Origin: an uncultured Candidatus Saccharibacteria bacterium
GTDB taxonomy: Bacteria; Patescibacteriota; Minisyncoccia; UBA6257; 2-01-FULL-56-20
Direction of reading: 5' to 3'
Length of the DNA stretch: 64,000 nt
Assembly: GCA_964365185.1 (NCBI GenBank)
Contig: CAYIOP010000001.1
Span: forward strand, 34,675-98,674
Each line of letters begins with the position of its first letter. Position 1 is the stretch's first letter. This document shows positions 24,208 through 48,068 of the stretch, one piece after another. A program made the position numbers and the translations under genes. The notes under the pieces were generated by a model that was not told the DNA's origin, made no database searches, and saw nothing but the letters and a program-made list of their open reading frames with translations.

Positions 24208-24316
24208 TTTATTTTTTCCGAAATAAATTTGAGAGGTGATTTTTAAGTAGGGTCCAAAAAGCCCCTACGATAAGCTTAATAGTTCTAATGCGTATTTTGA
24301 TACTTGGATTCATGGA

Positions 24317-26107: not shown

Positions 26108-26130
26108 AGATGATTTTTGTTTTTTTGATA

Positions 26131-26162
26131 CTATTCTCTAATTCGCGCGAATTAGAGAATAG
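26131..26162. repeat. 32-nt perfect palindrome between array members 2 and 3
   Basis: ctattctctaattcgc|gcgaattagagaatag, read directly. It is preceded on the + strand by a T-run. Confidence 0.5.
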
Positions 26163-26181
26163 TTGGATAGAAGCGCCTTAA

Positions 26182-27834: not shown

Positions 27835-27836
27835 AT

Positions 27837-29504
27837 TTAGATAACTTTTTGTTGGTAGCAACTTTCGCAAAAAATAATTTCGGGTTGGTCAGGAGCGAAA
27901 TTTGTTTTAATTGGTTTTTGACAGTTCGCGCAATTGCGATCAAATATTTTAATTGGTCCTCTTCTATTTATCCTAGCTTGGTGGCGACAGTAAAAGCAAT
28001 GCCGCGGGAGAGGTATGGACATGAGTTTATAAAACTGGAATTCAGCTTGAATGATTTTGTAGTTTCGTTTACAAGAAACGCAGGCGAGAATTTCGTCTAT
28101 AATTTTTTCTGAAATTTCGCTAATATCATCTGGAATCTTTTCTGATTTCAGAGTTTCTTTTCCGGTTGTTATTTGAAGATTATCTTCCCAGCGATAACCT
28201 TGGGCAAGGGCTTCGTCTTTAGTGAGCGGCAAGTTGTCTTGCGCAATAGTTTCGTTATAGGCGAAGAGATTAAGAGCTGGTGGGAAGAAGAGTCCATAAT
28301 CCCCCGCCTGAATAAGTTCCTGCTTGATTGTGTTCGTAATTTGCCGATATTCTTTTTCGTCGTAGCGTTTATTTAGAATTGAAAATTTGGAGTTTTTTAT
28401 GCCATCGCAACCGAAACATTCTTGGCTATTACGCGTGGCGAAGCAATAAGCGACATCTTGAGCGTTTTCCACCCACCAAGAGCTGATGACTCTGGCGCTA
28501 TAACCAGTGGCAACTGCTTCCAACAACAATTCGGAGTTGCGGCCATGGCCGATAATGTCGTAGGTGTCTTTTGCTAATTTAACCGAGAAAGAGTAGTTGA
28601 CGTTTTCACAAAAGGCTAATTCAAATGAGGAGCGACAATTTTTTGATTCAAAAATGTAGTCGCCGGTTACAGCCACACTTTTTAGATTGTTGTTTTCGCG
28701 GCGTGGGAATTTAAGAGAAAATTCATCAAAGTTTTTCGCGAATTCTTTTATGGCGCTATAGCTGCCGATAATTGGTTCGACTTTCTTTTTCCACTCTTCT
28801 TTAGAGAGCGGTTCATTTAGAAAATGGTATTTTTTATGGCGAAGATTAACACAACCGAAGCAATTTTGAAGACCGACGCAATTTAAGAGAAATGAGGAAT
28901 CGAGGCATTCGGAAACATTTTGAGACCAAGAGACGCCTTTGCTGTTGTGAATATTTACTCCTTCGTAAATGTTTTCTGATTTATCAATATTGTAGCCGTC
29001 AAAGACATTGCGGCACTGGAGCATTCCGCGAGAATAGGCGCAGTTTTCATTATTGGGTCCGGAGTTGGCGACGAGATAGCAGTCCTTGTTGCCGCCAGCA
29101 AAGTTTTCATACGGACTGTTTACGCTTTTCATTACGTCGCTGCGGTAAAGTGCACATTTAGGAACTGAATGGGTTAATTCTTTGAATTGATCGAAAAAAG
29201 GCCGATTTGAATTATAAACTCGGCCGTAAGAAAAAGAATCCCATTTATCGCTATGCCAGCAATCGGGACAATATACCGTGAAAGTTGAGGAAGGGCTATA
29301 CATTGAAATAATCGGCTCATGGCAGAGATCACAGGAACGATTATATAAAACAAATTCGTTTCGAAATTGGGCCTTTCTTTTAAAGCGGCATTCAGGACAT
29401 AAAATAGGCGCCGGAACGCCCATTTTTTTATAGAAAGTGAAGTCGTCGGGTTCGATGGTGAACCCATTTTTGCAATTCTGACAAATTCTTGAATCTTGGA
29501 TCAT
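27837..29504 (-). CDS. Cys-rich zinc-ribbon family protein (tandem array member 4)
   Basis: MIQDSRICQNCKNGFTIEPDDFTFYKKMGVPAPILCPECRFKRK at the N-terminus. Internal NCFGCVNLRHKKYHFLNEPLSKEEW, and a C-terminal CFYCRHQ...IIFCESCYQQKVI. Confidence 0.6.
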   Translation of the reverse strand: MIQDSRICQNCKNGFTIEPDDFTFYKKMGVPAPILCPECRFKRKAQFRNEFVLYNRSCDLCHEPIISMYSPSSTFTVYCPDCWHSDKWDSFSYGRVYNSNRPFFDQFKELTHSVPKCALYRSDVMKSVNSPYENFAGGNKDCYLVANSGPNNENCAYSRGMLQCRNVFDGYNIDKSENIYEGVNIHNSKGVSWSQNVSECLDSSFLLNCVGLQNCFGCVNLRHKKYHFLNEPLSKEEWKKKVEPIIGSYSAIKEFAKNFDEFSLKFPRRENNNLKSVAVTGDYIFESKNCRSSFELAFCENVNYSFSVKLAKDTYDIIGHGRNSELLLEAVATGYSARVISSWWVENAQDVAYCFATRNSQECFGCDGIKNSKFSILNKRYDEKEYRQITNTIKQELIQAGDYGLFFPPALNLFAYNETIAQDNLPLTKDEALAQGYRWEDNLQITTGKETLKSEKIPDDISEISEKIIDEILACVSCKRNYKIIQAEFQFYKLMSIPLPRHCFYCRHQARINRRGPIKIFDRNCANCQKPIKTNFAPDQPEIIFCESCYQQKVI

Positions 29505-30097: not shown

Positions 30098-31564
30098 TTA
30101 AATAAGTGGTTCAGGTTCTTTGGTGGCTGGAGGATTTGGTTCTTCGGAGTCAGCGGTTCGGGGCTTACCTTCAATAATGGCTTTTTCCTGAGCGCTTCTA
30201 AAAATCGTGGCTTCTTCTTCAGTAATTAGTTTTTTAGCGGCGCCAGCTGGGATAGTGTATTTAGTCCTCGATAATTCCGTAATTTTTTCTTTAAATGTTT
30301 CATGAGTGGGAGGCAAAACCTTTAACGTTTCGGCCGAGAAAGGATCATAGGTTTCACCGTCAATGGTCATTTTGATATAGAATTCCTGCATACCAAGATT
30401 AATCATATCTTTGACTTTAAAAACCGGATCCATTTCGGGTTCGAGTTTGACTGCGTCTTCGCCGCCGACGCGGAAAATAATGATAGTGCCGGTATTGCCT
30501 AAAACAGCTGCCTGAACTCGGGGAATTAACTGAGCGGCGTATTGATGGGCGACAGTAAGGCATAAACCATATTTGCGGGCTTCAGAGAGAATGTTTTCAA
30601 AGGTTTCAGTGACTAAGTTATGAAACTCGTCAACGTAAAGATAGAAATCCGTTCGGGATTCTTCGGGCATGCCAGCTCGGGCCATTCCAGCTTGCTTGAT
30701 TTTAGTAATAAACATCGCACCCAAAAAACTTGAGTTTTCTTCGCCTAGTCGTCCTTTACAGAGATTAATAAAGAGAATTTTCTTTTTTCTCATTACTTCT
30801 TCTATATCAATTTTATTTTCTTTTTGACCAAAGATGTTTCGTAGTAATGGGTCGGAGAGAAATTGGCCAAGTTTATTTACTAGTGGAATAATAGCGTCGG
30901 TGTCGAATTTTTCCGACCAATCGGCGAATTCAATGGCCCAAAAACGTTTAACCATATCGTCTTCAATATATTCCACCACTTTCTGACGATAGTTGCGGTC
31001 GGTAAGCATTGAAATCATGCCGCGCATGGTGGCGTGAGGATAGTCGAGAAGAGCCAGACAAGTGAATCTGAAAACGTGTTCTAATCGCGGAGTCCAGTTG
31101 GCGCCAAATTGCTTTTCCATGACTTCAATTAAACCTTGAGTGAGTTGATGTTTGAAGGCCGGATCAACATTGGCTAAGGGATTAAATGAAACTGGATTAT
31201 CCAAATCGGTTGGGTCGATAATAACCACATCTTCAATTCTTTCCTTTGGGATGAATTTCAGGATTTCTTCGATTACATCTCCGTGCGGGTCCATAAGACA
31301 GAGGCCGTGGCCATACGCAACATCTTGTCGAATTAATAATTCCAAAAGTTTGGATTTGCCGACACCGCTTTTGCCGATAATATACATATGTCGGCGACGG
31401 TCTTTTCTTTTGATGCCAAAAATAAATTCCTTTTTTTCAAGCGCGGCCACATAGTTAGTGCGACCGATGAAGGAAATTTCCTTCGGGTCAATACGACCGT
31501 AGATTGGAAGCTCCGGTGGAGGCGGAGCGTATTTGATAATTTGAATTTTTCCGGCTTTACTCAT
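30098..31564 (-). CDS. DUF87-type P-loop NTPase (HerA/TraD/VirD4-like), paralog 2
   Basis: [40 protein letters not shown] and AHQ. The N-terminal 250 aa are about 45% identical to the ATPase at 1102..2922. It has no zinc-ribbon tail. Confidence 0.7.
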   Translation of the reverse strand: MSKAGKIQIIKYAPPPPELPIYGRIDPKEISFIGRTNYVAALEKKEFIFGIKRKDRRRHMYIIGKSGVGKSKLLELLIRQDVAYGHGLCLMDPHGDVIEEILKFIPKERIEDVVIIDPTDLDNPVSFNPLANVDPAFKHQLTQGLIEVMEKQFGANWTPRLEHVFRFTCLALLDYPHATMRGMISMLTDRNYRQKVVEYIEDDMVKRFWAIEFADWSEKFDTDAIIPLVNKLGQFLSDPLLRNIFGQKENKIDIEEVMRKKKILFINLCKGRLGEENSSFLGAMFITKIKQAGMARAGMPEESRTDFYLYVDEFHNLVTETFENILSEARKYGLCLTVAHQYAAQLIPRVQAAVLGNTGTIIIFRVGGEDAVKLEPEMDPVFKVKDMINLGMQEFYIKMTIDGETYDPFSAETLKVLPPTHETFKEKITELSRTKYTIPAGAAKKLITEEEATIFRSAQEKAIIEGKPRTADSEEPNPPATKEPEPLI

Positions 31565-35630: not shown

Positions 35631-35636
35631 GGAGAT

Positions 35637-35667
35637 TAGGTGATAGGTTTTAGGTTTTAGGTGGCAG
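35637..35667. repeat. heptad-periodic (T)AGG repeat between secD and secF
   Basis: tagg tgatagg ttttagg ttttagg tggcagg, with TAG at 35637, 35644, 35651 and 35658. Confidence 0.5.
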
Positions 35668-36913
35668 GTGTTTGGGGTTTTGGGGCTGCCTGTTTTTTGG
35701 CTAGCACTTTTAAAAGCAGGCGGGTGGTGGTGATGGCAGAGAACATACTGATTAAAACTCCAATTAGAAGGGTGATAGCAAAGCCGCGAATAAAGCTTGA
35801 GGTTAAGAAATAAAGAATTAAAGCGGTGATGATGGTGGAGATATTTGAGTCGCGGATTGAAGGCCATGCGCGCCTGAAACCTTCTTCCATGGCGTTTATC
35901 CAAGAGAGACCCCTTTTAGTTTCTTCTTTAATGCGTTCAAAAATAAGAATATTGGCGTCGACGGCCATGCCGATGGTGAGGATAAAACCAGCCAATCCCG
36001 CGAGGGTCATGGTAATAGAGAAAAGTTTGAAAACGCCTAAAGTTAAGGCGATATATATAAGTAGGGCTAGGACGGCGAAAATACCAAGATAGCGATAATA
36101 GAGAACCATAAAAATCATCACCAAAAGCGCTCCAATTAATCCGGCAACTAGGGCTCGATGAAGTGAGTCCGCGCCAAGTGTGGGACTGATAGTTTGTTGA
36201 TTGATTAAGGTGATAGGCGCGGGCAGAGCGCCGGCATTAAATCGTTCGACTAACTGTTTAGCTTCGGCAAGAGTAAATTTTCCGCTAATCACGGCTTTAC
36301 CGCCAGTAATTTTTTCTTGAACCACGGGCGCCTCAATTAAAACATTGTCTAGAAAAATAGCGATGGGTTTGCCGATATTAGCTTCGGTTAATCTTTCAAA
36401 AATTCCTCCGCCTTCTTCGTTAAATTCAATCGCGACTTCGGGTTGGCCGGTGGTGGGATCAAAATTTAGTTGGGCGCTTTTAACGTAGCGGCCGTTTAGA
36501 TTAGTCATAATAAAACTAGTGGTGCTGGCGTTTTGTTCCACTTCGCGGAAATCAAGAAAGGGGGTGGTGCCGATTTGAGCAATGGCCTCGTTGATATTTT
36601 TAACACCAGCCAGCTCGACAATTAAATTATTACTGTCAGCTGTTTTAGATATAAAAACCTGGGGTTCACTCACGCCAAAGAGGTTAACTCGGCGCTCAAT
36701 AACGTCTCTTAAGCCGTTTAGAACCGAATCTTGGTCTGAAGTAGGGACTTGGGAGAGATCAATTTGATAAATTAAGTAGCTGCCACCAACTAAATCTAGC
36801 CCAAGGCGCCAGGGTTGTTTTTTAAGGCCAAAACCAGCCGGGTAAATAAAAACCGCGGCGAGGATGGTGATAATGATGATTAAAAATAAAAAGAGACCGG
36901 GGTGATGTTTCAT
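35657..36913 (-). CDS. secD: Protein translocase subunit SecD
   Basis: N-terminal TM helix, a periplasmic domain, then a C-terminal 5-TM bundle (LAGLAGFILTIGMAVDANILIFERIKEE is the SecD/F signature). Confidence 0.8.
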   Translation of the reverse strand: MKHHPGLFLFLIIIITILAAVFIYPAGFGLKKQPWRLGLDLVGGSYLIYQIDLSQVPTSDQDSVLNGLRDVIERRVNLFGVSEPQVFISKTADSNNLIVELAGVKNINEAIAQIGTTPFLDFREVEQNASTTSFIMTNLNGRYVKSAQLNFDPTTGQPEVAIEFNEEGGGIFERLTEANIGKPIAIFLDNVLIEAPVVQEKITGGKAVISGKFTLAEAKQLVERFNAGALPAPITLINQQTISPTLGADSLHRALVAGLIGALLVMIFMVLYYRYLGIFAVLALLIYIALTLGVFKLFSITMTLAGLAGFILTIGMAVDANILIFERIKEETKRGLSWINAMEEGFRRAWPSIRDSNISTIITALILYFLTSSFIRGFAITLLIGVLISMFSAITTTRLLLKVLAKKQAAPKPQTPAT

Positions 36914-37207
36914 TGAGATTAGGTTTAAGGTGGCAGGTTATGGGTGATAGGTTGCTACGAAAGTTGGAATTTATTAACGATACGATTATAAAGGAAGGCG
37001 CTTAAATTGTAAACTCCTCTGAATAAGAGTTTTGTGAGTAATTTTTTTCTAGAGAGAAAGGTCTAAGTTAGAAAATTATTTATAAAACTTGATCGTTTTA
37101 TTTTTCGAATAGTGCCATTTTTATTTGAGTGGAATGAAATAAAAAAACGGGATGTAAATTTCTTTACATCCCGCAATATAATGAATGTGGTTTGTCGTCC
37201 GTGGGCG

Positions 37208-37762: not shown

Positions 37763-38209
37763 TTACTTGTCTGTGCCGAAGATTCTGGCGTAATTTCCGT
37801 CTATTCCCCAGGGCAATTCTTTTTCTTCTTGTTCCCGAAAAGATCCGTAGAATGGGTAGGTGAAAACTTGGCCATTCGGACGGATTCGACAATTTCTCCA
37901 TCCGTATTTTTCGCGAAATTGAAGCTCGATTGTGCGGTCCACGTTGACTTCGAAATCGAGCGTCCCTATCGGTACATTTACCGTGTCATAAGGACTGATT
38001 CCCATAGGTGTATTGTCTAGGTAGTAGTCGATGGCGTAGCAAAGAGCAGCTGTTTGTTGGCGTTGGAATCGAAGTTCCTTTTTGAAGTGAAAAGCCGCAA
38101 TTGCAGTAACAATAAATGCACCGATTATCACAGCTCCCAGAAAAACAAATAATGAACGCATAAAACCTCCAATTATTAAGTTACATTTGAACAGATTTAA
38201 TTTTAGCAT
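37763..38209 (-). CDS. hypothetical membrane-anchored protein
   Basis: 148 aa with one N-terminal TM helix. No motif recognised. Confidence 0.35.
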   Translation of the reverse strand: MLKLNLFKCNLIIGGFMRSLFVFLGAVIIGAFIVTAIAAFHFKKELRFQRQQTAALCYAIDYYLDNTPMGISPYDTVNVPIGTLDFEVNVDRTIELQFREKYGWRNCRIRPNGQVFTYPFYGSFREQEEKELPWGIDGNYARIFGTDK

Positions 38210-39020
38210 TATAATAATTATTATGTCAAGGATTGGAGCTAGCGATTTGAATTTAAAGAATGGCGAGCGGGCGTTGGTGGTGGTGGCGCATCCGGATGAT
38301 GAGACAATTTGGATGGGTGGGACGATTTTAAAATTTCCGAGGGCGAAGTGGACGATTTTTTCGCTTTGTCGTGGTGATGATAGAGATCGGGCGCCAAAAT
38401 TTAAGCGAGTTTGCCGATTTTTAAGCGCGAAGGGAGTGATTTCGGATTTGGAGGACGAGGAGGTTTTGAGCTTGAAAGAGAGTTTGCCTGAAATACGCTT
38501 ACGTTTGAGAAATTTCTTATTTGCCTCTCAGAACCGCGGTTCAATCCGTTCCAGCGGCGGCTTGTCCACTACCTCTCGACGCGATGAGTCCCGGCTCGGC
38601 GGGACACCAAGCTCATCGCGTCTCCGAGAGTTTCTTCGAGACAAACAAAAAATTTCTCCCCCCCCGATTACATCCCTTCACAAATTCAATGAGAGAGGAG
38701 GAGGGATGGAGTTTGATTATGTTTTTACGCACGGGTATAATGGAGAGTACGGACATCCGCGACACAAAGGTGTGCATCGCGCGGTTGCGGAGATGATTCG
38801 GGCGGGGGAGATCCGGACGAAACATTTTTTTAATTTCAGTTATGAGTTTCTTGAGCGAAAGAATGTTTGTCGGCCTAAAAAGGCGGAATTTTTTTTAGAG
38901 TTATCCCCGACTGTTTTTAAAAAAAAGCAGAAAATTATCAATGAATTCTATGGATTTAGAAAATCGACTTTTGAGTATCGGACTTTATCAAATGTGGAGT
39001 CGTTTAAGTTAATAAAATAG
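38187..39020 (+). CDS. PIG-L/LmbE-family N-acetylglucosaminyl deacetylase with internal low-complexity insertion
   Basis: LVVVAHPDDETIWMGGTIL (PIG-L AHPDDE motif) and a distal HGYNGEYGHPRHKGVH (HxxH zinc motif). A Ser/Arg/Gly-rich stretch of about 55 aa, encoded by a GC-rich segment, lies between them. Confidence 0.5.
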   Translation: MNRFNFSIIIIIMSRIGASDLNLKNGERALVVVAHPDDETIWMGGTILKFPRAKWTIFSLCRGDDRDRAPKFKRVCRFLSAKGVISDLEDEEVLSLKESLPEIRLRLRNFLFASQNRGSIRSSGGLSTTSRRDESRLGGTPSSSRLREFLRDKQKISPPPITSLHKFNERGGGMEFDYVFTHGYNGEYGHPRHKGVHRAVAEMIRAGEIRTKHFFNFSYEFLERKNVCRPKKAEFFLELSPTVFKKKQKIINEFYGFRKSTFEYRTLSNVESFKLIK

Positions 39021-39490
39021 TGGCTATGCGACTTACGACGCTTTGTTTTTTACTTAAAGATAATGAAATACTACTGGCGATGAAAAAAACTGGATTTGGA
39101 ACTGGTAAATGGAATGGAGTGGGCGGGAAAGTTGAGGTTGGCGAGACGATCTCACAGGCAGCCGCTCGAGAATTAAACGAGGAGATCGGGGTGAGAGTCA
39201 ACCCTGAAGGTTTGGAGAATGCGGGAAATATTAAGTTTTATTTTCCCGAGAATCCGGGTTTTGACCAACATATGCATATTTTTTTGGCGCGAGATTGGGA
39301 TGGCGAACCCGTTGAAACTGCGGAAATGAAACCGCAATGGTTTGGATTTGGCGACATTCCCTATTCTTCGATGTGGGTGGATGATGAGTATTGGTTGCCG
39401 AAAGTTTTACTTGGCAAGAAAATTGAGGCCAGTTTTTATTTTAAAGGCGGCGGGGAGAGTTTTGATAAACACGAAGTTAAAGAAATTTAA
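39020..39490 (+). CDS. NUDIX hydrolase (MutT-like)
   Basis: Nudix box GGKVEVGETISQAAARELNEEIGV. Confidence 0.75.
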   Translation: MAMRLTTLCFLLKDNEILLAMKKTGFGTGKWNGVGGKVEVGETISQAAARELNEEIGVRVNPEGLENAGNIKFYFPENPGFDQHMHIFLARDWDGEPVETAEMKPQWFGFGDIPYSSMWVDDEYWLPKVLLGKKIEASFYFKGGGESFDKHEVKEI

Positions 39491-39492
39491 AA

Positions 39493-40641
39493 ATGAAATC
39501 CGTAATTCTATACGCATATCCGCCGGAGCCGGATGGACTTTCGCAACAGGGTGATATGCTCTATCGGGGACTCAAAGAAATTGGCGAGGAGATACTCCCC
39601 TGCCACCTCTCGAGCGAATTTCAGAAGGAGTGGATTTATAAATTTTTAAAGCCCGACGTGGCCATCGGTGTTGGATTTTGGGGACACACCCAGGATATTA
39701 TTTTGCATCCGCAGAAATTCGGTATTCAGCCAGTGCCGTGGCTACTCGCGGATGGCTGGGTGGCGAATTACCACAAAGAAATCGGCGAGTTGCCACTTGT
39801 ATTTACCACGAGTGATTGGGTGGCTCGAACTTTTGCTCGGGATGGGGTGGATACTAAAAATTTTCAAACGCTCTATATTGGGCTTGATACTGAACTTTTT
39901 AAACCCATTCCACGCAGTGACCCGAGAGTGAAATTGATTCGAGAGATGATTGGAGTACGTGAGGATGAAGTGATGATTATGACTGCTGGAGGCGATGTGA
40001 CTTCTAAAGGCGCGCAGGAGGTTTTTAGGGCCTTAAAAAGAGTGGATGCCGAGTTTAAAAATTGGAAGTATGTTTGTAAAATTTGGGGCGGAGCAAGCGC
40101 GGATGACCACTACGACGACGAGATGGCTTTGATTGAGGAGTTAGGCGAGGAGGCGAAAGAAAAAATAATTTACCTTGAAGGTTCAATGTCTCGTGAGTTT
40201 ATGCCTTTACTTTTAAACGCCTGCGATATTTACGCGGCGCCTTCGCGGCTGGAGGGATTTGGAATGATACAAGTAGAGGCAATGGCGTGTGGTAAGCCAG
40301 TGATTTCAATTGACGAGATGGGGCCAAAGGAGACGATATTGCATGGCGAGACGGGTTTCTTGGCTAAAGTGGCTTCAACTGTGGATTTAACCGAGGAGTG
40401 GGCCTATGTGGGCTGGGGATTTGAGGAGGATCATAAAATTCAGTTTGAAAAACCCAAGACGTTTGCTTATCGGGCTGACGCAGACCAGATTGCGGAGTAT
40501 TTGCTTAAATTACTTACAGATAAAGATTTGAGAGAAAAAATGGGTGCTCGGGCTCGTGAACACGCGGTAGAAAAATTTGAGTACCGAAAAATCGCCAAGC
40601 AGATGACGGATGTGATTAAGGAGAAGTTTAATTTGAACTAG
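39493..40641 (+). CDS. GT4-family glycosyltransferase
   Basis: C-terminal EGFGMIQVEAMACGKPVIS, the GT-B E-x7-E motif region. Confidence 0.7.
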   Translation: MKSVILYAYPPEPDGLSQQGDMLYRGLKEIGEEILPCHLSSEFQKEWIYKFLKPDVAIGVGFWGHTQDIILHPQKFGIQPVPWLLADGWVANYHKEIGELPLVFTTSDWVARTFARDGVDTKNFQTLYIGLDTELFKPIPRSDPRVKLIREMIGVREDEVMIMTAGGDVTSKGAQEVFRALKRVDAEFKNWKYVCKIWGGASADDHYDDEMALIEELGEEAKEKIIYLEGSMSREFMPLLLNACDIYAAPSRLEGFGMIQVEAMACGKPVISIDEMGPKETILHGETGFLAKVASTVDLTEEWAYVGWGFEEDHKIQFEKPKTFAYRADADQIAEYLLKLLTDKDLREKMGARAREHAVEKFEYRKIAKQMTDVIKEKFNLN

Positions 40642-40662
40642 GATTCTAATTGGAAAATTTTT

Positions 40663-41673
40663 ATGGATAAAGGAATTTTTACTCAGCTTCCCGGAAAAAT
40701 AGTGGAATTAGATTCTCGATTTAAATATGTAATGGCGCTGGCTTTGAATTCTCGCTCGAATTATATGAATGGAATTATTCGATGTATTACTAAACGAGAT
40801 GGAGATTTGCAAATTAAGGGATACGCAGATCGAAGTGTTTTGTATCAAGTTAGGGGTGATTCTCTTAAAAATTTCTATATAGAAAACAAATTGAACATTA
40901 ATGGAGAAGAAGAATTAATTAATCAATTTAGTGGTGATGATTGGGATTTTATGGGTTTTGAAGACCCTGATATTTGGATTGATGATATGGATGATTTTAC
41001 GCATGTTTATTTTACAATTTCGCTCTGGAATAAAAAGCAGCGGCATACGTTCTGTCATTTGGGACATGCCGAAGGCGCAAATTTAGATTCATTAGAAATG
41101 ACAGAACCGGTGCTTATTGTTGATGAAAAAATTCGGAGGGCCAAGGAACCCTCGATTGCTCCGGTGAATAAAGGAGGGTTTCGATATAATTTAATCGAAT
41201 CTCGGTCAGATAAAGGACAATTTTCCTATTCTACAGTAAGGGTTGCAATTACTGAAAATATGGGCGAACCCTGGAAATTTGGTGAGACGGTATTGCATCC
41301 GGCCGAAAATAATATTCCGTGGATTGGCGGACACGCTTCACCTGGACCTCTACTGTCTCAAAATTTTATAGATGTTGGAGATGGAAAGTGTTTAGGTTTT
41401 TTAAATGGGCGAGAAGTTAATCAAAAAATTGGAGAAAATGTGCGGTATGGAACATTCTCTATTGGCCTTTTCATATATGACTACGAGAATGGAAAAATTG
41501 ATTGGGTCTCATCTAAACCTTTTATTCAGGATAGTGAGGCGAAAACTATAACTTTTGCCAGCCAATTTGTTCAAACTGGTGAGAATGACGGAATTTTATA
41601 CGCCCACGTTGATGATTCTTTTGTTCGGGCTTATGAAATTAGAGCAAATTTAATTAAACCTCTGTTGATTTAA
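40663..41673 (+). CDS. hypothetical protein, possible beta-propeller glycosidase-like (weak)
   Basis: 336 aa with an acidic DWDFMGFEDPDIWIDD stretch reminiscent of GH32/43/130-type propellers. It is flanked by 51-nt direct repeats derived from the GT4 3' end. Confidence 0.25.
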   Translation: MDKGIFTQLPGKIVELDSRFKYVMALALNSRSNYMNGIIRCITKRDGDLQIKGYADRSVLYQVRGDSLKNFYIENKLNINGEEELINQFSGDDWDFMGFEDPDIWIDDMDDFTHVYFTISLWNKKQRHTFCHLGHAEGANLDSLEMTEPVLIVDEKIRRAKEPSIAPVNKGGFRYNLIESRSDKGQFSYSTVRVAITENMGEPWKFGETVLHPAENNIPWIGGHASPGPLLSQNFIDVGDGKCLGFLNGREVNQKIGENVRYGTFSIGLFIYDYENGKIDWVSSKPFIQDSEAKTITFASQFVQTGENDGILYAHVDDSFVRAYEIRANLIKPLLI

Positions 41674-41680
41674 CTTGATT

Positions 41681-41731
41681 ATCGCCAAACAAATGGCGGA
41701 TAAGATTAAGGAGAAGTTTAATTTGAACTAG
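41681..41731 (+). repeat. 51-nt duplicate of the 3' end of the GT4 gene (direct repeat partner of 40591..40641)
   Basis: atcgccaaacaaatggcggataagattaaggagaagtttaatttgaactag versus atcgccaagcagatgacggatgtgattaaggagaagtttaatttgaactag. The last 30 nt are identical, and the copy encodes ...IKEKFNLN*. Confidence 0.6.
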
Positions 41732-41770
41732 TTTATTTGGTGCATTGGTAATAACTGGAAACGTTCATTT

Positions 41771-41804
41771 TATACACTACTCTGCGATCGTAAAGTAGTG
41801 TATA
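41771..41804. repeat. hairpin repeat copy A (tatacactact-ctgcgatcgtaa-agtagtgtata)
   Basis: 11-bp perfect stem with a loop containing gcgatcg. A near-identical copy lies at 42431..42469. Confidence 0.55.
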
Positions 41805-41828
41805 AATAAAACATCAGTATTAAGTATT

Positions 41829-42419
41829 ATGTTAAAAACTAGAAGTTTGACGTCTAAAATTTTGGAAGTTGTAAGCGAGGGTGTAATCTCAACTTTTGAT
41901 GTTATCGGCGCGATTTTAGAGTCCGGTTACGGCGCTTCTTATGCGAAACTTGATGCTAGTGTTCGACGCTCTGAGGCGAGGCGTCATAATCGTGAATTGG
42001 AGCTTCGCAATAGACAGAGATTTAGTAATTTAATTTCTAAATTGAAACGGGACGGTTTAATTACTGGCGATAAGCGATCTTTAAAGATCACCGAGGCCGG
42101 ACGTAAGAAATTTTTAAAAATTCGGGAAATTGAGCGAAGTAGAGTTATTCACTCTCCTTTTGGATATCAAGCTAAAGTAAGTCGAAATCTTACAATCGTT
42201 ATTTTTGATATCCCGGAGAAGGAAAAGGTTAAAAGAAATTGGCTGCGAGCGGTTTTACTAAATCTCGGTTTTAAATTGCTTCAGAAGAGTGTTTGGATCG
42301 GTCGAGTTATTATTCCTCGGGAGTTTTTGAAAGATCTTCGAAATATGAGAATTTTGGAGTACATTCACATATTTTCTGTATCTCGATCGGGGACAATTGA
42401 AAATGATAAGGATGGATAG
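41829..42419 (+). CDS. hypothetical protein with winged-helix-like N-terminus; C-terminal region loosely Cas2/VapD-like (speculative)
   Basis: 196 aa. RFSNLISKLKRDGLITGDKRSLKITEAGRKKF looks like an HTH wing. TIVIFDIPEKEKVKRNWLRAVLLNLGFKLLQKSVWIG resembles the beta-alpha-beta core of the Cas2 fold. The gene is flanked by hairpin repeats A and B. Confidence 0.3.
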   Translation: MLKTRSLTSKILEVVSEGVISTFDVIGAILESGYGASYAKLDASVRRSEARRHNRELELRNRQRFSNLISKLKRDGLITGDKRSLKITEAGRKKFLKIREIERSRVIHSPFGYQAKVSRNLTIVIFDIPEKEKVKRNWLRAVLLNLGFKLLQKSVWIGRVIIPREFLKDLRNMRILEYIHIFSVSRSGTIENDKDG

Positions 42420-42430
42420 TTTCCCTTATA

Positions 42431-42469
42431 AATATACACTACTATGCGATCGTAGATTGGTGTATATTT
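42431..42469. repeat. hairpin repeat copy B (aatatacac-tactatgcgatcgtagattg-gtgtatatt)
   Basis: Shares tatacactact[c/a]tgcgatcgta with copy A, in direct orientation and 660 nt apart. Confidence 0.55.
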
Positions 42470-42590
42470 ATGATGAAAATGGAAATTGATTTAGATTACT
42501 AATAGCTAAGCAGCAACTGGAATCCGCGGCGCCGTAATAGACCATAAGCCCTCCATTCTTTAGAACTGCTCCTTCGGGGTTTGAGCATTT
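42468..42590 (-). pseudogene. GH130 C-terminal gene fragment (40 codons) duplicating the 3' end of 44849..45823
   Basis: The minus-strand translation KCSNPEGAVLKNGGLMVYYGAADSSCCLAISNLNQFPFSS* matches FPEGAVIKNGKLMVYYGAADSSCCLAIYNFNNFLK*. An in-frame stop lies upstream of the fragment. A 24-nt stretch, tccgcggcgccgtaatagaccat, is identical in the two copies. Confidence 0.55.
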
Positions 42591-42609
42591 CTAGTATCGC
42601 ATCTCCATT

Positions 42610-43056
42610 TTATACTCTCCTATTTTTTAAATACTCAGGAAAAGTTTTTCGTTTATCTTTTTCGGTTTCGTCCGTTTTTTCTTCCAATATTGCCTTCAGA
42701 TATCCAAGTGGATCAGCTGGATCAATGTCACTCACATTAAATTCTTTTACAACCTTAAAATATTCTGGTTTGTACATTTCCGAAGGATGTTGTCTTCGGG
42801 GACCTTCATATATTTCTAGCATCGCATCTCCATTTTCAAAAAATACTAACATTGCAAAATTCTTAAGTTCTTTATCTTCCCCTATCTTAAGATACGCCGG
42901 ATCACGTCCTTGATGGAGGAATATCTCTTTGTTAGCGCTACCTCCCTCGCTATATTTATCTATACTTTTAAAATATTCATAAAGAGTTTCTGGCGTAAAT
43001 TTTTTGCTTTCTGATTCTTTAATTTGTTCCGATTCTTCTGGGTTTTCGTACTTCAT
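42610..43056 (-). CDS. hypothetical acidic protein
   Basis: 148-aa ORF, E/K-rich, with no motif recognised. A 22-nt internal segment (42813-42836) is duplicated just downstream of its stop (42590-42612). Confidence 0.3.
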   Translation of the reverse strand: MKYENPEESEQIKESESKKFTPETLYEYFKSIDKYSEGGSANKEIFLHQGRDPAYLKIGEDKELKNFAMLVFFENGDAMLEIYEGPRRQHPSEMYKPEYFKVVKEFNVSDIDPADPLGYLKAILEEKTDETEKDKRKTFPEYLKNRRV

Positions 43057-43153
43057 GATTATAATTATTTCTGATTATTATTTTTTGTCAATTTTTGTCT
43101 GTTTAGTACTATTTGTAAAACGTACTAACGCGAGAAAATTTGTACGCCAAAAG

Positions 43154-43181
43154 TTGACAAACAGGGGAATTATGCTATAAT
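43154..43181 (+). promoter_or_regulatory. sigma70-type promoter TTGACA-N16-TATAAT with upstream inverted-repeat operator candidate
   Basis: ttgaca at 43154-43159 and tataat at 43176-43181. Upstream, ttagtac-N12-gtactaa forms an inverted repeat at about 43104-43130. Confidence 0.45.
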
Positions 43182-43271
43182 CCCCTTGTTCTTGTCTCTC
43201 TTGTTATTTGATAAGTGAATAGCCGCTGTCTATGGGATAATCCATGGTCAGCGCAGTATTAACCATTTTTT

Positions 43272-44408
43272 TTGGCTATACGCCAAGAAAGGAAGTCCAC
43301 GATGACGGTTTCGACCAACATCGCTAGTTCTGCAAATATCTACTTCGGAGGTGAGTTGGTTCCGACCAACTCAGCTGGAGATATGGTATTTGCGATTGCT
43401 GGGACGCTGAGTAACGAAGTTATCAGTCGTCTGTCCAGGAAACTTTCGCGGAAACCAATGAGTTTCCAAGAACTTATTTATTCTTGTGACTACGAACTAT
43501 TGAGGCACTTGGCGACGGATGTCTATCTGCTTGTGATCCAACCAGGTCATGAAAAGCAATTCACGAATGAGGTAAGGGCTTTGGAATTGTGGAGGCAGGG
43601 CGCCCAGCGAGTACTTCTTATCCGCGGAGGTGCGTTGATTCTGGCAGAAAAAATGTCTGAATACACCCGTCGTAAGATTACGTCAAATTTGCCATCAAAC
43701 CGCATCTTGAAATGCCTTTGTGCTTTCGACGGTGTATCTATTCCAGGTCTGACAGGATTTGATCTTACTTCCGCATTTTCTGCGATTGCACTTGCACTGG
43801 AGCAGGTTGTGGAGGAAAAGGTTAAGGTACTACTCAAACTGGCTATCGTTGACACACTGATCAACGGACGTCGCCTTGAAGACTGCGTACCGATTGCGCT
43901 TCCCGGCCAGACCGCCTATCTCATTGGTGGTCTGTCGACTACCTCGCCCGATTCTCAGTCGTTTATACTAGGAACCAACCTTACTCGCGATGCATTTGAG
44001 CGTCTCTTGGGATTAGTGAATCCGGCGTCGGAGTTTCGTGAGCTAATCGCTGGCATCAAGCCGATTCTTGACCACATCATTACTGACACGTATGCCTTAG
44101 TGCATAATCGTGGAGGTGAGACGAAAGTCAAGGCGGTGGTCCTATGTAGTCATGGTGACCGGAAACTCCTCCTCACTCGCGGAGGCAGTATGCCTATTGT
44201 GAGAGAGGAGAGTGGAGCATTCTTTGTCCTCGACAACTTTGTCGACGAGATGTCCGACCAATACCCAGGTTTCAAACTTGGCGAAGCTTTGTACTCTGTC
44301 CGACAGCAGATCGCCAACGTTATCAGGATAAGAGCTGAGGTGCTCGGCGTGCTTGCTAATGCGTCACAGATGATTTCAACCATTTGGGCCGGAGGTAAGC
44401 AGTCATGA
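43272..44408 (+). CDS. hypothetical protein of GC-rich island (likely true start ATG 43302 with AGGAAG RBS)
   Basis: 378-aa ORF with clearly higher G+C and different codon choice (ctg, cgt, acc) than the flanks. No recognisable motif. Its stop overlaps the next start (ATGA). Confidence 0.45.
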   Translation: MAIRQERKSTMTVSTNIASSANIYFGGELVPTNSAGDMVFAIAGTLSNEVISRLSRKLSRKPMSFQELIYSCDYELLRHLATDVYLLVIQPGHEKQFTNEVRALELWRQGAQRVLLIRGGALILAEKMSEYTRRKITSNLPSNRILKCLCAFDGVSIPGLTGFDLTSAFSAIALALEQVVEEKVKVLLKLAIVDTLINGRRLEDCVPIALPGQTAYLIGGLSTTSPDSQSFILGTNLTRDAFERLLGLVNPASEFRELIAGIKPILDHIITDTYALVHNRGGETKVKAVVLCSHGDRKLLLTRGGSMPIVREESGAFFVLDNFVDEMSDQYPGFKLGEALYSVRQQIANVIRIRAEVLGVLANASQMISTIWAGGKQS

Positions 44409-44692
44409 TGATGGAATACAGAATTATGCTGATTGTTATCTTTATGATGGCATGCCTATGCTTTTTTGGGAGCATTCGACGTCTCGTAAGCACCGACAAA
44501 GAAAAGTACATTACTTTCGGAATCTTCTTCCTGTTTGTGGGGATAGCGTCAGCCATTGCAATTAGCCTCGAAGGGCAATACTATGCCGAAGGGCAATACT
44601 CTACTTTTTCAGGCGTCGACTATTCCATCCAATTCTTCGTGTTGGTTCTAGAGTCTGGATATCTCTTCCATGTCACCAAATGGGGAGAGTAA
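44405..44692 (+). CDS. small membrane protein (95 aa, 2-3 TM) translationally coupled to upstream island gene
   Basis: MMMEYRIMLIVIFMMACLCFFGS...FGIFFLFVGIASAIAISL hydrophobic helices, with an ATGA overlap at 44405-44408. Confidence 0.45.
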   Translation: MMMEYRIMLIVIFMMACLCFFGSIRRLVSTDKEKYITFGIFFLFVGIASAIAISLEGQYYAEGQYSTFSGVDYSIQFFVLVLESGYLFHVTKWGE

Positions 44693-44816
44693 GCAGACCC
44701 GTCTTTCTGAATGACGGATTGATACGTCCTTCATCTGGGATGCTGACTCTTTCCGCCAGCAGTATGAAGCGCTCCTGACGAGACCACAAAAATAGCAATT
44801 TTTCAGAAACCTATAA

Positions 44817-44850
44817 CCGGCTCCGAGACAATGTCTTGGAGCCGCTTTTT
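44817..44850 (+). terminator. Rho-independent terminator of island operon
   Basis: ccggctccgagac-aat-gtcttggagccg followed by cttttt. The T-run overlaps the stop of the convergent GH130 gene. Confidence 0.45.
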
Positions 44851-45823
44851 ACTTTAGAAAATTATTGAAGTTGTAGATAGCTAGACAGCAGCTGGAGTCC
44901 GCGGCGCCGTAATAGACCATTAGCTTTCCATTTTTTATCACCGCGCCTTCTGGAAAAGTGACATTATTTACAATCCCCTTTCTTTCATAAAGTTTTTGAG
45001 GTTCTAGGATTGGTCTTTCAGATTGCCACAAAACTTCTCGTGGATTTTTTAAGTCCAAAAGCGCGGCGTGGATGGGCCACACTTTTTTTCCTATAGCAGG
45101 ACCACAATAAATTAAAAGCCAGCCCTTGCTAGTTTTGATTGGTGGTGCGCCTAGCTCTGGACCGCGCAGAGCGCCGCGGGGAGGCAGGAGCACGGCGTGT
45201 TTATCAAAGTTGGTGAAAATTTTACCCCAATAATTCTTGGGAGGATGGAACAGTTCTTTTGTGTCCTTAAATTCAGTGTAGAGAATAGAGGAGTCCACTT
45301 TGTCGGGATGCCAGGTGAATAACATTCCGATTTTTCCGTTAATTTTCGCTGGGAAAATTGCCGCAGCTTTGGCTCGGACTTGGTCTGGTTTTGGCCCAAT
45401 AAAGCCATGCTTCTGAATTTTCTTAAAATCTTTGGTTGTGGCTAGAGCGATTCCGGGTACTTCCTTTTTGGAATATGCCGGTTTTGACATGGCTGTGTAG
45501 AAAATGTAATAGGTGTCACCGAGTTTGGTTATTCGAGGGTCTTCGCAGCCGAATTGATTCCAGGGGTGATCTGGTTTTATAAGGGGTTTTGCCGAGCGGG
45601 AAAAATTTATGCCATCCTTACTAGTGGCGTAGCCGATGGAAGAAATGTAATTAGTATAACCACCGGCAGGTCTTGGCTTGAATCCGGCTCGAACCGCGCG
45701 ATAGACCATATGGAAAATTCCATTTTCATAGACCACGGATGGATTAAAAACCGAACCGGCTTCCCAAAAGTTTTTGGGGTTGGGTTTTAAAATTGGATTT
45801 CTTGGGTAGCGGATAAGTTTCAT
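44849..45823 (-). CDS. GH130-family glycoside hydrolase/phosphorylase (5-bladed beta-propeller)
   Basis: NPIL.P....WE..SVFNPSVVYENGIFHMVYRAV, GYATSKDG and GCEDPRITKLGDTYYIFYTA are hallmark GH130 motifs. Confidence 0.7.
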   Translation of the reverse strand: MKLIRYPRNPILKPNPKNFWEAGSVFNPSVVYENGIFHMVYRAVRAGFKPRPAGGYTNYISSIGYATSKDGINFSRSAKPLIKPDHPWNQFGCEDPRITKLGDTYYIFYTAMSKPAYSKKEVPGIALATTKDFKKIQKHGFIGPKPDQVRAKAAAIFPAKINGKIGMLFTWHPDKVDSSILYTEFKDTKELFHPPKNYWGKIFTNFDKHAVLLPPRGALRGPELGAPPIKTSKGWLLIYCGPAIGKKVWPIHAALLDLKNPREVLWQSERPILEPQKLYERKGIVNNVTFPEGAVIKNGKLMVYYGAADSSCCLAIYNFNNFLK

Positions 45824-46881
45824 AAACCGGGATTCTGCTTAAGAGTTTCGATAAGTTCAGCTAAATTTACTTTAGCGACCGCAATTAAATGGTCGGCGGC
45901 GCCGTAGTAGATGTAGAGATTATTGTCGAAAATAGCGGTGCCGGTTGGGAAAACAACATTGCTGACATCGCCGACTTTTTCCCAAGATTCATCTGGACCA
46001 AAGAAAGGTTCTTTTAAACGGCCGAGGACTTTTTGGGGATTTTCCAAATCTAAGAGTGCGGCGCTCGCTCGATAGATGCGACCGTGATTGGTTTCTTCAA
46101 CGGAATGAAGCAGAAAAAGCCAGCCATCTTTGGTTTTGATGGGTGGGGCTCCGCCGCCGATGTGGCGGGTTTCAAACCAATATCGGTTTTCTAGCACAAC
46201 AAAATCTGGAAGATGGTTTAAATAATTCACCCAAAAATCTCTAGATTTTAATTGTTTAAAATTATCAAAATAAACAATCTGAATATCCGGCAGAATTCGG
46301 TGTAATAGAGCAAATTTTCCTCCAATTTTTTCGGGAAATAAAACCGCATCCTTTTCCCAAAGCAGGATGTCCTTGCCGCCGAATTCTTCGTAGAAGGATT
46401 CAAACATCGCGTATTGGTCTTTGAGATGCTCGGCACGCAGGATTTCGCCGACTTCATCATAAGTTAATTGGGGACTGATAATTCCATCTTTTTTCCAGTT
46501 TTTTAAGTCCGCGCTTGTGGCAAGCGCGACAACCGCGTTTTTGCCGTCGTGGGCCGTATACGTCATATAGAACGTGTTTTCGATTTTGACGATACGCGGA
46601 TCTTCTACTCCCATTACTTCATACATCGCCTCGCGTTCAATCAGAGGTTTATCGAGGCGTTCGATGACCTCGGTTGGGCCTTTGAGTTTGGCATAGCCGA
46701 TTCTGGATTTAGTATTTTCATTTGTGTCCATCTTATCTTGACCGATGGCCCGATAAAAAATATGGACGTATTCGTCGTCTTGATAAACAGCTGGATTTAA
46801 AACCGCTTTATTTTCAAAAATATTTTCCGTGGGTTTTAGAATTGGTCCGAGTTTTTCAACTTTCATTGTAAATTTTGACAA
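45820..46881 (-). CDS. GH130-family glycoside hydrolase/phosphorylase, paralog
   Basis: NPAVYQDDEYVHIFYRAIG and GVEDPRIVKIENTFYMTYTAHDG. The gene has 4-nt overlaps with both neighbours. Confidence 0.7.
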   Translation of the reverse strand: MSKFTMKVEKLGPILKPTENIFENKAVLNPAVYQDDEYVHIFYRAIGQDKMDTNENTKSRIGYAKLKGPTEVIERLDKPLIEREAMYEVMGVEDPRIVKIENTFYMTYTAHDGKNAVVALATSADLKNWKKDGIISPQLTYDEVGEILRAEHLKDQYAMFESFYEEFGGKDILLWEKDAVLFPEKIGGKFALLHRILPDIQIVYFDNFKQLKSRDFWVNYLNHLPDFVVLENRYWFETRHIGGGAPPIKTKDGWLFLLHSVEETNHGRIYRASAALLDLENPQKVLGRLKEPFFGPDESWEKVGDVSNVVFPTGTAIFDNNLYIYYGAADHLIAVAKVNLAELIETLKQNPGL

Positions 46882-48068
46882 AAATTATGCGCATAGAGAT
46901 ACGCGCCGGCGCTCCAGGCCTGGAAAGGCGAGGCGGAACCAGTGACTTTGCCGGTTTTGCCGCCTAGCCATTCGGCGAAGCCGAACTGTGATTTTTTGAT
47001 AGCGGCGATTTTTTTCCAATCATTACTGGTTTGTTGATTGGCCTTGGCTAAGAGTTCTAGTTCTTTTGTGGCTTTGCGGGAGTCCCCTGCCTTGGCTAAA
47101 GCGGCCACGTAAAATCCGCCGATCATTGGCCAGATGCCGCCGTTTAAGTAGTGGTAGGGTTCGCGAGCTTCGCATTCATCGAAGTACGAATGCCACGCCG
47201 TCGCTGAAGCTTTGACGCGCGAAGTATTCCCTTTTGGTTTTATAATTGGCGGGTAAATTGATTTGCAGGGAAAGGGTCGGTTGATTTTATTTTTTTCGAT
47301 GTATTGAAGGATGTTCTTGGCGATTTTGGGAGTAGCTAAGCCGCTTACAATCGCAAGGAGATTTCCCAAGGTATCGAACCACTCTTCGCTTTCGCGGGTT
47401 TTGGGACTGTGAGTTTTCCAAACCCAAGGACGATAGTAGCCGAGTTTGGTGTCATAAAGTGAAAGATATTTCTTGATTTCGCCGTTGACTACTTTTTTTA
47501 GATGAGCGGCTTGTTTATTTTTCCCGTAGAGCGTGAGCGCCCAAAAATAGAGGGCTTCGGTGTTAATCACGCGGCCGTATTTGTGGGGGAAAGCATCTTC
47601 CCAGTCCATAGTTGGCTGTTGGACTAAAAGAGTATCTTCGTTCGGATCTTGGTATTCGAGCCAGGTGAAAGCGGAGTTGATATTTTGGCGGTATTTTTTA
47701 AGCAGAGATTTATCTTTGTAGTTAGTCGCATAAGTTTGGTGACCGATTAGATACCAAAGAGTTGAATCAATGGAATTAAAAGTAACATCCGAACGGCGTT
47801 CGGTATTCCATGAGCCCACGGCGTTAGGAATCTGGCCGTGACGGGATTGGTTTTTTGAGAGTAATTCAATACTTTTCTGAAAAGGAATTTTAAATTTATC
47901 GTTGATAGTTGAGGCGCCAAGGCCAGTAATCATACTGTCGCGCGCCCAGGTGGCTTCGTAACCGCCGGGCAGACCCGAGGCATAGAAGCCGGTTTTTTTA
48001 GCGCAGTGTTCCAGGACTTTGATGGCTTTTTGGGAGGCGAGATTTACTATGATCGATTTGTTCGACAT
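46863..48068 (-). CDS. (alpha/alpha)6-barrel glycoside hydrolase (GH15/GH63/GH125-like; family uncertain)
   Basis: YEATWARDSMITGLG (a Y..W.RD motif), an NGGIWP loop, and a repeated aromatic-rich helical hairpin pattern. It sits in a cluster with GH130 genes. Confidence 0.45.
   Translation of the reverse strand: MSNKSIIVNLASQKAIKVLEHCAKKTGFYASGLPGGYEATWARDSMITGLGASTINDKFKIPFQKSIELLSKNQSRHGQIPNAVGSWNTERRSDVTFNSIDSTLWYLIGHQTYATNYKDKSLLKKYRQNINSAFTWLEYQDPNEDTLLVQQPTMDWEDAFPHKYGRVINTEALYFWALTLYGKNKQAAHLKKVVNGEIKKYLSLYDTKLGYYRPWVWKTHSPKTRESEEWFDTLGNLLAIVSGLATPKIAKNILQYIEKNKINRPFPCKSIYPPIIKPKGNTSRVKASATAWHSYFDECEAREPYHYLNGGIWPMIGGFYVAALAKAGDSRKATKELELLAKANQQTSNDWKKIAAIKKSQFGFAEWLGGKTGKVTGSASPFQAWSAGAYLYAHNFCQNLQ

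Follow-up and report, generated by a model that had tools for sequence, protein, structure and literature searches.

A 64,000-nt stretch of the genome of an uncultured Candidatus Saccharibacteria bacterium (hereafter the window; contig CAYIOP010000001.1 of assembly GCA_964365185.1, positions 34,675 to 98,674) carries a glycan locus in which two conserved genes face each other across five additional open reading frames (ORFs; Table 1). The left anchor encodes a family 4 glycosyltransferase (GT4), and the right anchor a family 130 glycoside hydrolase (GH130a) that adjoins the remainder of a conserved glycan operon. Between them lie o336, then a gene for a Cas2-like protein of the PaaX_M family with a winged helix-turn-helix (wHTH) domain, itself placed between two dyads, and finally an island made up of o148, o378, and o95. 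The stretch that these conserved, convergent genes of a mannoside/glycan locus enclose is a hypervariable islet. Mapping of relatives with tblastn outlined the conserved frame of the locus, in which a PIG-L gene leads into GT4 on the plus strand, while the convergent minus-strand genes comprise GH130a (in some genomes), GH130b or GDE, a 737-aa GT4-type protein, and another GH130. Species-representative genomes were scanned for these relatives with the GT4 protein, which yielded 23 loci, nearly all from metagenome-assembled genomes (MAGs) of Paceibacteria, Liptonbacteria or 'Patescibacteria', and two loci (L031 and L035) were added by context look-up. GT4 orthologues at 24 loci share 51-87% identity, and GH130a is 45-73% identical across relatives with conserved synteny, L035 being the closest (73%). 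The window belongs to a groundwater genome of Paceibacteria type, from an ultra-small bacterium, and its arrangement also occurs on two contigs from Hainich groundwater well H43 (L001 and L030). A metagenome scan with GH130a gave a single, distant match.

Table 1 Features of the GT4/GH130a locus, with positions counted from the first letter of the window (GC3, G+C content at third codon positions; AF2, AlphaFold2).
Feature	Position	Strand	Support or remark
GT4 glycosyltransferase, left anchor	39493-40641	+	Pfam Glycos_transf_1, E 4e-27
GT4 working 3' end, repeat copy 1	40591-40641	+	last 17 codons of GT4, including TAG
o336, predicted divergent GH130-fold five-bladed propeller ('cassette 1')	40663-41673	+	AF2 and Foldseek
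Orphan GT4 3' end, repeat copy 2	41681-41731	+	90% identical to copy 1; encodes IAKQMADKIKEKFNLN and a stop
Upstream dyad	41769-41806		centre 41787/41788, core GCGATCGT
wHTH and Cas2-like (PaaX_M) protein, 196 aa	41829-42419	+	Pfam PaaX_M, E 7.8e-13
Downstream dyad	42431-42468		centre 42449/42450
Orphan GH130a 3' end	42468-42578	-	about 36 codons; in-frame stop 42468-42470
25-nt filler, GH130 remnant/o148 junction	42587-42611		96% copy of o148-internal 42812-42836
o148, acidic protein	42610-43056	-	GC3 0.25
Island divergent promoter region	43064-43181	both	11/12 (minus) and 12/12 (plus) consensus
o378, near-orphan protein	43272-44408	+	GC3 0.50; public gene call starts at 43302 (368 aa)
o95, small hydrophobic protein	44405-44692	+	start overlaps o378 end; GC3 0.53
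Terminator hairpin, island right edge	44818-44844	+	G+C-rich 12-bp stem, 8 GC pairs, then CTTTTTACTT
GH130a, right anchor	44849-45823	-	Pfam Glyco_hydro_130, E 3e-46
GH130b and GDE_C/GH100-like hydrolase, remainder of conserved glycan operon	45820-48068	-	

Self-comparison of positions 38000-47000 recovered all three repeat pairs on which the original prediction had been built. Both copies of the GT4 end (51 nt, 90% identical) finish with the stop codon TAG of the gene. The hairpin pair (41771-41804 and 42433-42466; 34 nt, 88% identical) consists of copies that are each palindromic by themselves and that fold as RNA on the plus strand at -19 to -21 kcal/mol (z about -7), and the GH130-end pair (42482-42578 and 44857-44953) extends over 97 nt at 77% identity. 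With self-BLAST scores of 67.6, 41.7, and 71.3 bits against a maximum of 32.5 bits among 100 composition-preserving shuffles of the 9-kb region, the three pairs are confirmed as real and far above chance. The same search revealed a fourth significant repeat, absent from that prediction, in which 25 nt at the left edge of the island match a segment within o148 (96% identity, 41.7 bits). The island between the GH130 copies, predicted to span about 2.2 kb, measures 2,278 nt (42579-44856).

Both anchor genes are thus accompanied by a second copy of their own 3' end. The orphan GT4 end, located 3' of o336 and within no ORF, differs from the working copy at 5 of 51 nt (two synonymous and two non-synonymous codons), the last 27 nt being identical, and the similarity stops precisely at the stop codon, as expected of orthologous genes with different downstream content. 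The GH130 sequence that had been described as a pseudogene fragment proved to be an orphan 3' end with a stop codon just upstream of it. Its minus-strand translation, PEGAVLKNGGLMVYYGAADSSCCLAISNLNQF, agrees with PEGAVIKNGKLMVYYGAADSSCCLAIYNFNNF of the intact gene at 27 of 32 residues, and a codon-by-codon comparison of the 32 homologous codons counts 12 synonymous against 5 non-synonymous differences. For each end, the two copies are closer to one another than to any relative: the GT4 copies match at 46 of 51 positions and no relative exceeds 43, and both GH130 copies carry the motif ADSSCCLAI, which among relatives was seen in full only in L035. Mostly synonymous differences imply that the GH130 copies diverged as working genes of one clade under purifying selection. 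This divergence excludes a target-site duplication made in place and means that one copy came with incoming DNA. As to which copy is native, the SNLN of the remnant is slightly nearer to the CNLN of L035 than is the YNFN of the working gene, a difference too weak to use. The GH130 orphan keeps its reading frame and was probably created recently, and the 51-nt GT4 and 97-nt GH130 duplicates, judging by how the copies differ, are the displaced old 3' ends of the two anchors. The comparison supports the view that, in two of the three units, the interrupted gene owes its intact state to a substitute 3' end and its former end persists as a remnant. A tblastn search detected no other pseudogene sequence of GH130 or GT4 beside these remnants.

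Related genomes provide both empty and differently occupied versions of this junction. In L004, which comes from the same well (H43), GT4 (6470-7615) runs 4 nt into GH130a (7612-8613); the overlap is 8 nt in L035, and 5 nt separate the two genes in L011. At five further loci (L013, L015, L017, L018, and L020) the next conserved minus-strand gene begins 45-101 nt after GT4. In the remaining relatives the gap measures 0.3-2.8 kb and is filled by mutually unrelated genes; at least 12 further relatives hold such unrelated content, including genes for an HExxH protein (L005), APH-like proteins (L007, L014, and L031), transporters resembling the major facilitator superfamily (L010 and L012), a NUDIX protein (L014), and others. 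Homologues of the five insert ORFs of the window were not found in these gaps, the PaaX-like gene excepted, and duplicated GT4 or GH130/GDE ends were found in the gap of none of 24 relatives. The empty and variable alleles mark the site as a true variable hotspot. An insertion hotspot with serial acquisition, as originally proposed from the window, is therefore borne out, and the comparison with related genomes that had been suggested for finding empty sites did find them, in L004, L011, and L035.

Immediately adjoining the hotspot, a NUDIX hydrolase gene (39020-39490) sits between PIG-L and GT4, with a start that overlaps PIG-L and a 2-nt gap before GT4. This gene is present at the PIG-L/GT4 junction in none of 24 relatives, where PIG-L directly precedes GT4, and it appears to be a second insertion, without any scar.

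The left insert encodes a protein that fits its surroundings. Although o336 has no Pfam match, its AF2 model is of high confidence (pLDDT, the predicted local distance difference test score, of 92), and the top Foldseek matches in the PDB are GH130 mannoside phosphorylases (4udg, 1vkd, and 5ayd; E around 1e-12, template-modelling score around 0.7). More than 1000 homologues occur in Paceibacteria at about 60% identity, the best reaching 64%. On its predicted structure, o336 is a conserved Paceibacteria GH130-fold protein, functionally suited to the locus. Of the first cassette as originally described, the bracketing by 51-nt repeats stands; the enclosed gene is not arbitrary cargo. An o336 homologue lies between two GH130 genes in L027, a sandwich that speaks for a functional connection of o336 with GH130 enzymes, and the homologues in L026, L028, and L029 lie in quite different contexts. 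At none of the loci L026-L029 do copies of neighbouring gene ends flank the homologue. In the window, the junction between o336 and the GT4 remnant (41674-41680) holds nothing diagnostic. In L027 (4755-8956), the o336 homologue has a 414-aa GH130 on one side and, on the other, a 640-aa protein with two GH130 domains in tandem. In L028 (1-7600; also in L029), another Hainich Paceibacteria genome, rplB and rpsS of the ribosomal protein operon are split by five genes, for an aminotransferase, an Orn/DAP decarboxylase, a 276-aa ORF product, a histidine kinase, and the o336 homologue.

The right island differs in its content and preserves one of its own joints. Between the orphan GH130 end (42578) and the o148 stop codon (42610-42612) lie only 8 nt and the 25-nt repeat, which is in the same reading frame as its source within o148, carries codons for NGDAMLE, and furnishes the stop codon of o148. 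Such templated filler indicates illegitimate end joining or template switching and misfits conservative site-specific recombination. At the other edge, the T-run of the strong terminator extends to the stop codon of GH130a. The divergent promoter region comprises a minus-strand promoter (TTGACA-16-AATAAT, 43091-43064) and a plus-strand promoter (TTGACA-16-TATAAT with an upstream TG, 43154-43181). o148 has no match in Pfam, NCBIfam, PHROGs, PADLOC, or phage, plasmid, and viral collections. Among 1.84 billion representatives, o378 retrieved only itself and one cluster at 45% identity on a 2.4-kb contig, and its AF2 model (pLDDT 34) is unusable. No relatives of the island cargo were found in IMG/VR, among INPHARED phages or among PLSDB plasmids. 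The island was also considered as a defence system and rejected as such: PADLOC and PHROGs searches were negative, and the sole weak Cas2 matches belong to the PaaX-like protein. The control region as a whole (43057-43271) has near-perfect sigma-70 consensus on both strands, unusually strong for this genome region, together with repeated TTGTCA/TTGACA motifs that may be operators.

Between the two orphan tails sits the PaaX_M/Cas2-like gene with its dyads (41769-42468), 37 nt past the orphan GT4 stop codon and 1 nt from that of the orphan GH130. The protein scores 48.8 bits against PaaX_M (cut-off 24), with weak N-terminal wHTH matches (HTH_45, E 0.0024; WH_III-A, E 2e-4) and a match to Cas2 TIGR01573 that barely passes the cut-off (26.1 against 24.5 bits) over 40 residues only. 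Its 442 homologues are all from the candidate phyla radiation (CPR), many of them auto-annotated as 'Cas2', and an FDIP motif with Asp127 is invariant. The hairpin pair had been taken as the footprint of an insertion. This interpretation does not hold, as homologous dyads flank the same gene family at all eight independent loci and in at least four genomic contexts, a survey covering every independent homologue for which DNA was obtained (proteins 39-61% identical). The dyads measure 36-40 bp, one located 25-130 nt before the start codon and one 30-70 nt after the stop. Homologues of the upstream dyad occur in L031, L033, L035, L037, L039, and L042, and the downstream dyad is complete at seven of the eight loci (the window and six others), L031 having a full upstream dyad and a downstream half-site. 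The module lies between cobA and eno in L033 and L037, between GH130a and GDE in L035, between smc and rpsP in L042, and in another context in L039. The slot between cobA and eno is stable between L033 and L037. Within the glycan locus, in contrast, the window, L031, and L035 have orthologous modules (56-61% identical) in three different slots. The window has no further copy of the element, and none was found in IMG/VR.

Comparison of the dyads shows a conserved core, ACGATCGT (or ACGGTCGT/ACGACCGT), with variable arms that change together with the protein across the eight loci. When 13 elements are aligned, 93% of cells pair, and both sides have changed in 13 of the 17 pairs. None of 500 shuffles reached this level, and slid controls gave 28-43% pairing. 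Pair counts on the coding strand, compared to tell an RNA hairpin from a DNA operator, show 13 G.U against 6 A.C, a difference without significance, and compensatory changes within a locus are few. From this conservation, the dyads are a feature of the PaaX_M/Cas2-like gene family rather than insertion scars, and the wHTH protein most likely binds them as its cognate sites at either end of its gene. Like the autoregulated repressors PaaX and PadR, the protein combines an N-terminal wHTH with a PaaX_M (Cas2-like) domain and has a dyad upstream, often in a divergent promoter region; in L031, L033, L035, and L037 this upstream dyad is placed like an operator. Unlike them, it is only 190-200 aa long, lacks the PaaX C-terminal domain, and has a second full site beyond its stop codon, even before convergent genes. 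Since the downstream dyad often faces a convergent gene, it is no ordinary operator for a downstream promoter. We found no publication linking CPR PaaX_M/Cas2-like proteins to flanking palindromes, and the paired-dyad module appears to be undescribed so far.

Other assignments of the module were tried and set aside. A CRISPR-Cas adaptation module was rejected, as neither a Cas1 family nor a repeat array was seen in the window or in seven homologue neighbourhoods. An element of the insertion sequence or miniature inverted-repeat transposable element type was likewise rejected: the dyads at both module ends could serve as terminal inverted repeats, but flank inspection showed no target-site duplication, there is no transposase domain, and the module is present as a single copy in the window and at each related locus. 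At some loci the dyad centre is non-palindromic, with ACGGTCGT upstream and ACGACCGT downstream (L039, 3901 and 4660; also L035, 3965 and 4623), which shows that the two copies can be inverted rather than direct (GGTC against GACC in L039). A similar layout in an unrelated family is seen in L026 (5114-5484), where a small wHTH gene of 93 aa with HTH_5/HTH_24 matches (5161-5442) lies between 40-nt direct repeats (5114-5153 and 5445-5484, 88% identical), like the PaaX module between its two element copies.

Machinery that could have built the array was sought across the window. No integrase, transposase, or relaxase was detected among 54 ORFs of at least 100 aa (Pfam, E <= 1e-4), in agreement with the original prediction, and searches of Pfam, NCBIfam, PHROGs, and PADLOC gave no sign of a recombinase for o336, o148, o378, or o95. 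For attC or other RNA elements, Rfam (gathering threshold, and E <= 1) returned only a tRNA elsewhere and a spurious sub-threshold miRNA, in a search made without a dedicated attC model. The window does encode two VirD4/TrwB-like ATPases as well as ComEC (3772-6083). Competence and predominantly within-phylum horizontal gene transfer have been reported for Patescibacteria (PMC12455944), which together with ComEC makes DNA uptake plausible. The GC3 values of o336 (0.27) and of the island genes, mixed as these are (Table 1), deviate from those of window genes (0.40 +/- 0.06) and point to foreign composition. ComEC appears to be divided between two ORFs, one with the Competence domain (3772-5199) and one with Lactamase_B (5217-6083). 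One VirD4/TrwB-like ATPase (30098-31564) adjoins four paralogous ORFs of 555-596 aa without a Pfam match (22501-29504), and the second (1102-2922) carries a zinc finger.

Taken together, these observations can be read as homology-anchored illegitimate recombination with DNA from related genomes, an account to which we attach about even confidence. The order of events, the donors and the recombination route, as we infer them, would be as follows. GT4 and GH130a would originally have abutted, and a self-contained PaaX_M/Cas2-like module (dyad, gene, dyad) would then have been placed between them. Two separate acquisitions of related Paceibacteria DNA would have followed, each with homologous pairing in one flanking gene and with the other end joined illegitimately inside the tail of the resident copy. 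On the left, pairing in GT4 would have delivered a new GT4 end and o336; on the right, pairing in GH130a (or beyond) would have delivered a new GH130a end and o148, o378, and o95 with their promoters and terminator. The resident tails (51 nt of GT4 and 97 nt of GH130a) would have been shifted inward and survived as orphans. The route was probably natural transformation followed by homology-facilitated illegitimate recombination, without a dedicated recombinase. Because the intergenic spacers are only 1-37 nt, a join that spares the module is likelier to fall inside a duplicated tail than outside it, which softens the coincidence of two similar events.

Several points weigh against this account. 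No donor was found: among the sampled genomes, none places o336 after GT4 or o95 beside GH130a; o336 has no relative closer than the 64% noted above, o378 is nearly an orphan, and the presumed ancestral order GT4, PaaX, GH130a was seen in no relative. A sliding-window analysis gave no mosaic signal in GT4, for which relatives are too distant (75-80% nucleotide identity). Both illegitimate joins fall less than 100 nt from the stop codon of an anchor gene, a regularity that would come free from a circular intermediate or a site-specific system, and the perfect cores inside the repeats, 27 nt for GT4 (40615-40641 equal to 41705-41731) and 24 nt for GH130, would suit an att core. The recombinase search, moreover, covered 64 kb of the genome only.

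Two of these points feed directly into an alternative that we consider unlikely, in which o336 (1,090 bp) and the island (2.4 kb) are cassettes with a mimic of the target 3' end as att site, integrated by a recombinase encoded elsewhere or by Campbell-type crossover of a circle. Direct repeats do flank each unit, the target gene is restored both times, two events at one site share the same architecture, and empty sites are present in relatives. However, the codons within the identical cores are the most conserved ones, among them those of a YYGAAD motif that the paralogue at 45892-45911 shares, and the 25-nt filler lies at the very junction that such a system would have made cleanly. The GT4/GH130 repeats recur in none of 24 relatives, o336 homologues elsewhere lack flanking copies of neighbour ends, and the cassettes contain no recombinase, nor do the 64 kb around them encode an integrase, transposase or relaxase. 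The cargo has no relatives in viral, phage or plasmid collections. The original prediction had named site-specific integrative elements or cassette capture as the source of the footprint; given the lack of a recombinase in 64 kb, the absence of duplicated ends in all 24 relatives and the filler junction, this part of it is not supported. Another, quite unlikely alternative dispenses with separate insertions altogether: an 898-bp piece (41681-42578) consisting of GT4 tail, PaaX module, and GH130 tail would have entered the o336/o148 junction in a single event, or the tails would be those of deleted tandem paralogues. The middle piece, which would come from the compact GT4/PaaX/GH130 junction of a relative and have entered by end joining or template switching, is shaped exactly like a randomly cut convergent junction, and its size is typical of environmental DNA fragments. 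A single event would account for the two orphan ends together, the filler (42587-42611) points to illegitimate joining of a replication or repair type, and the locus is rich in GH130 paralogues. Yet it would take a large coincidence for an unanchored fragment to land in its own source site, a fragment with homologous ends should replace what is already there rather than insert alongside it, and no relative has o336 adjoining o148, nor did tblastn show the additional pseudogene sequence beside the remnants.

It is also conceivable, albeit very doubtful, that the PaaX-like module is itself mobile or promotes recombination, its dyads being terminal hairpins recognised by the wHTH/Cas2-like protein, and that it created or feeds the hotspot. 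The gene is always found between its own co-varying dyads, the Cas2-type Asp in FDIP is invariant, orthologous modules occupy three slots of the same glycan locus, and the dyad copies of L039 are mutually inverted. Against mobility, L033 and L037 share the slot between cobA and eno although they are strongly diverged, a sign of vertical inheritance; each locus has a single copy, as do the 64 kb of the window; no target-site duplications were seen; the upstream dyad is operator-like; and the hotspot is equally variable in relatives that lack the module. We regard as no less improbable the broader notion that the gene and its co-evolving dyads form an autonomous CPR unit, either a minimal hairpin-ended mobile cassette or a protein-hairpin 'insulator', whose protein acts on its own ends as DNA or RNA and which would have helped to make the site recombinogenic.

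Read as homology-anchored illegitimate recombination, the hotspot is a new example of a known process, here in a little-studied phylum. Displacement of 3' ends of the Rhs/CdiA type was reportedly described by Jackson et al. in 2009, a study cited within that of Kirchberger and colleagues. In such systems, as in this reading of the locus, a conserved upstream part serves as homologous anchor, incoming DNA supplies a new 3' end and genes, the resident 3' end is moved downstream as an orphan without any integrase, and repeated events make an array. For Rhs loci and the effector-immunity arrays of type VI secretion systems, an origin by homology-facilitated illegitimate recombination, with pieces displaced downstream, has been proposed (Kirchberger et al. 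2017, PMC5361080). Among described systems, the 3'-end displacement arrays at these loci come closest, with the mechanism inferred in both cases. At 51 and 97 nt, the displaced pieces in the window are tiny by comparison and code for nothing useful, and housekeeping-type glycan enzymes serve as anchors in place of polymorphic toxins. The host belongs to the CPR, and there are two facing anchors, so that orphans accumulate in the middle.

Phage 21 and e14 restore the 3' end of icd on integration, and islands that target tRNA or tmRNA genes work likewise. The resemblance lies in the direct repeats of a gene 3' end that flank the insert, the gene being left intact and the copies differing by substitutions. 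In contrast to these elements, the window has no integrase beside the repeats or elsewhere in its 64 kb, the inserts (1-2.3 kb) carry no mobility genes, filler occupies one junction, and the att site does not recur in relatives. Integron cassettes share the serial arrangement of compact single-gene units and the presence of a hairpin-forming element beside the gene, but IntI and attI are missing here and the units are of mixed orientation with their own promoters. The hairpin, moreover, is found on both sides of one gene family only, with a ACGATCGT core, and travels outside arrays.

In the Patescibacteria, which are ultra-small and host-dependent, gene gain is usually inferred from phylogeny or composition. 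At this locus, the recombination joints are preserved as two orphan gene tails and a templated filler, giving a concrete, testable picture of gene gain that would be anchored in conserved flanks where two genes converge at a permissive site, in an organism that is competent and has no mobile-element machinery. The module has a bearing of its own, because a very common CPR protein that is auto-annotated as 'Cas2' is a stand-alone wHTH/Cas2-like gene between its own dyads, which corrects the annotation. With several hundred uncharacterised genes, this dyad-flanked family is the most worthwhile part of the locus to follow.

Further observations concern the flanks of the locus. PIG-L (38187-39020) contains a low-complexity insert of about 65 residues (around residues 112-175) with raised G+C that is not present in about half of the relatives, as seen from split tblastn matches in L002, L003, L007, and L010-L013. 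MAGs labelled 'Candidatus ainarchaeum' and Nanoarchaeota (L018 and L023) also carry GT4, at 60% and 51% identity, with GDE alongside it; L023 has the 737-aa GT and GH130 genes as well. These loci would reflect either gene transfer between CPR and DPANN or mis-binned contigs. Finally, a 31-nt intergenic element, AGATTAGGTTTTAGGTTTTAGGTTATAGGTG, is present in four copies in the window (360-390, 12687-12717, 35633-35663, and 36916-36946), two of which flank a SecD ORF (35657-36913), another gene between direct repeats.

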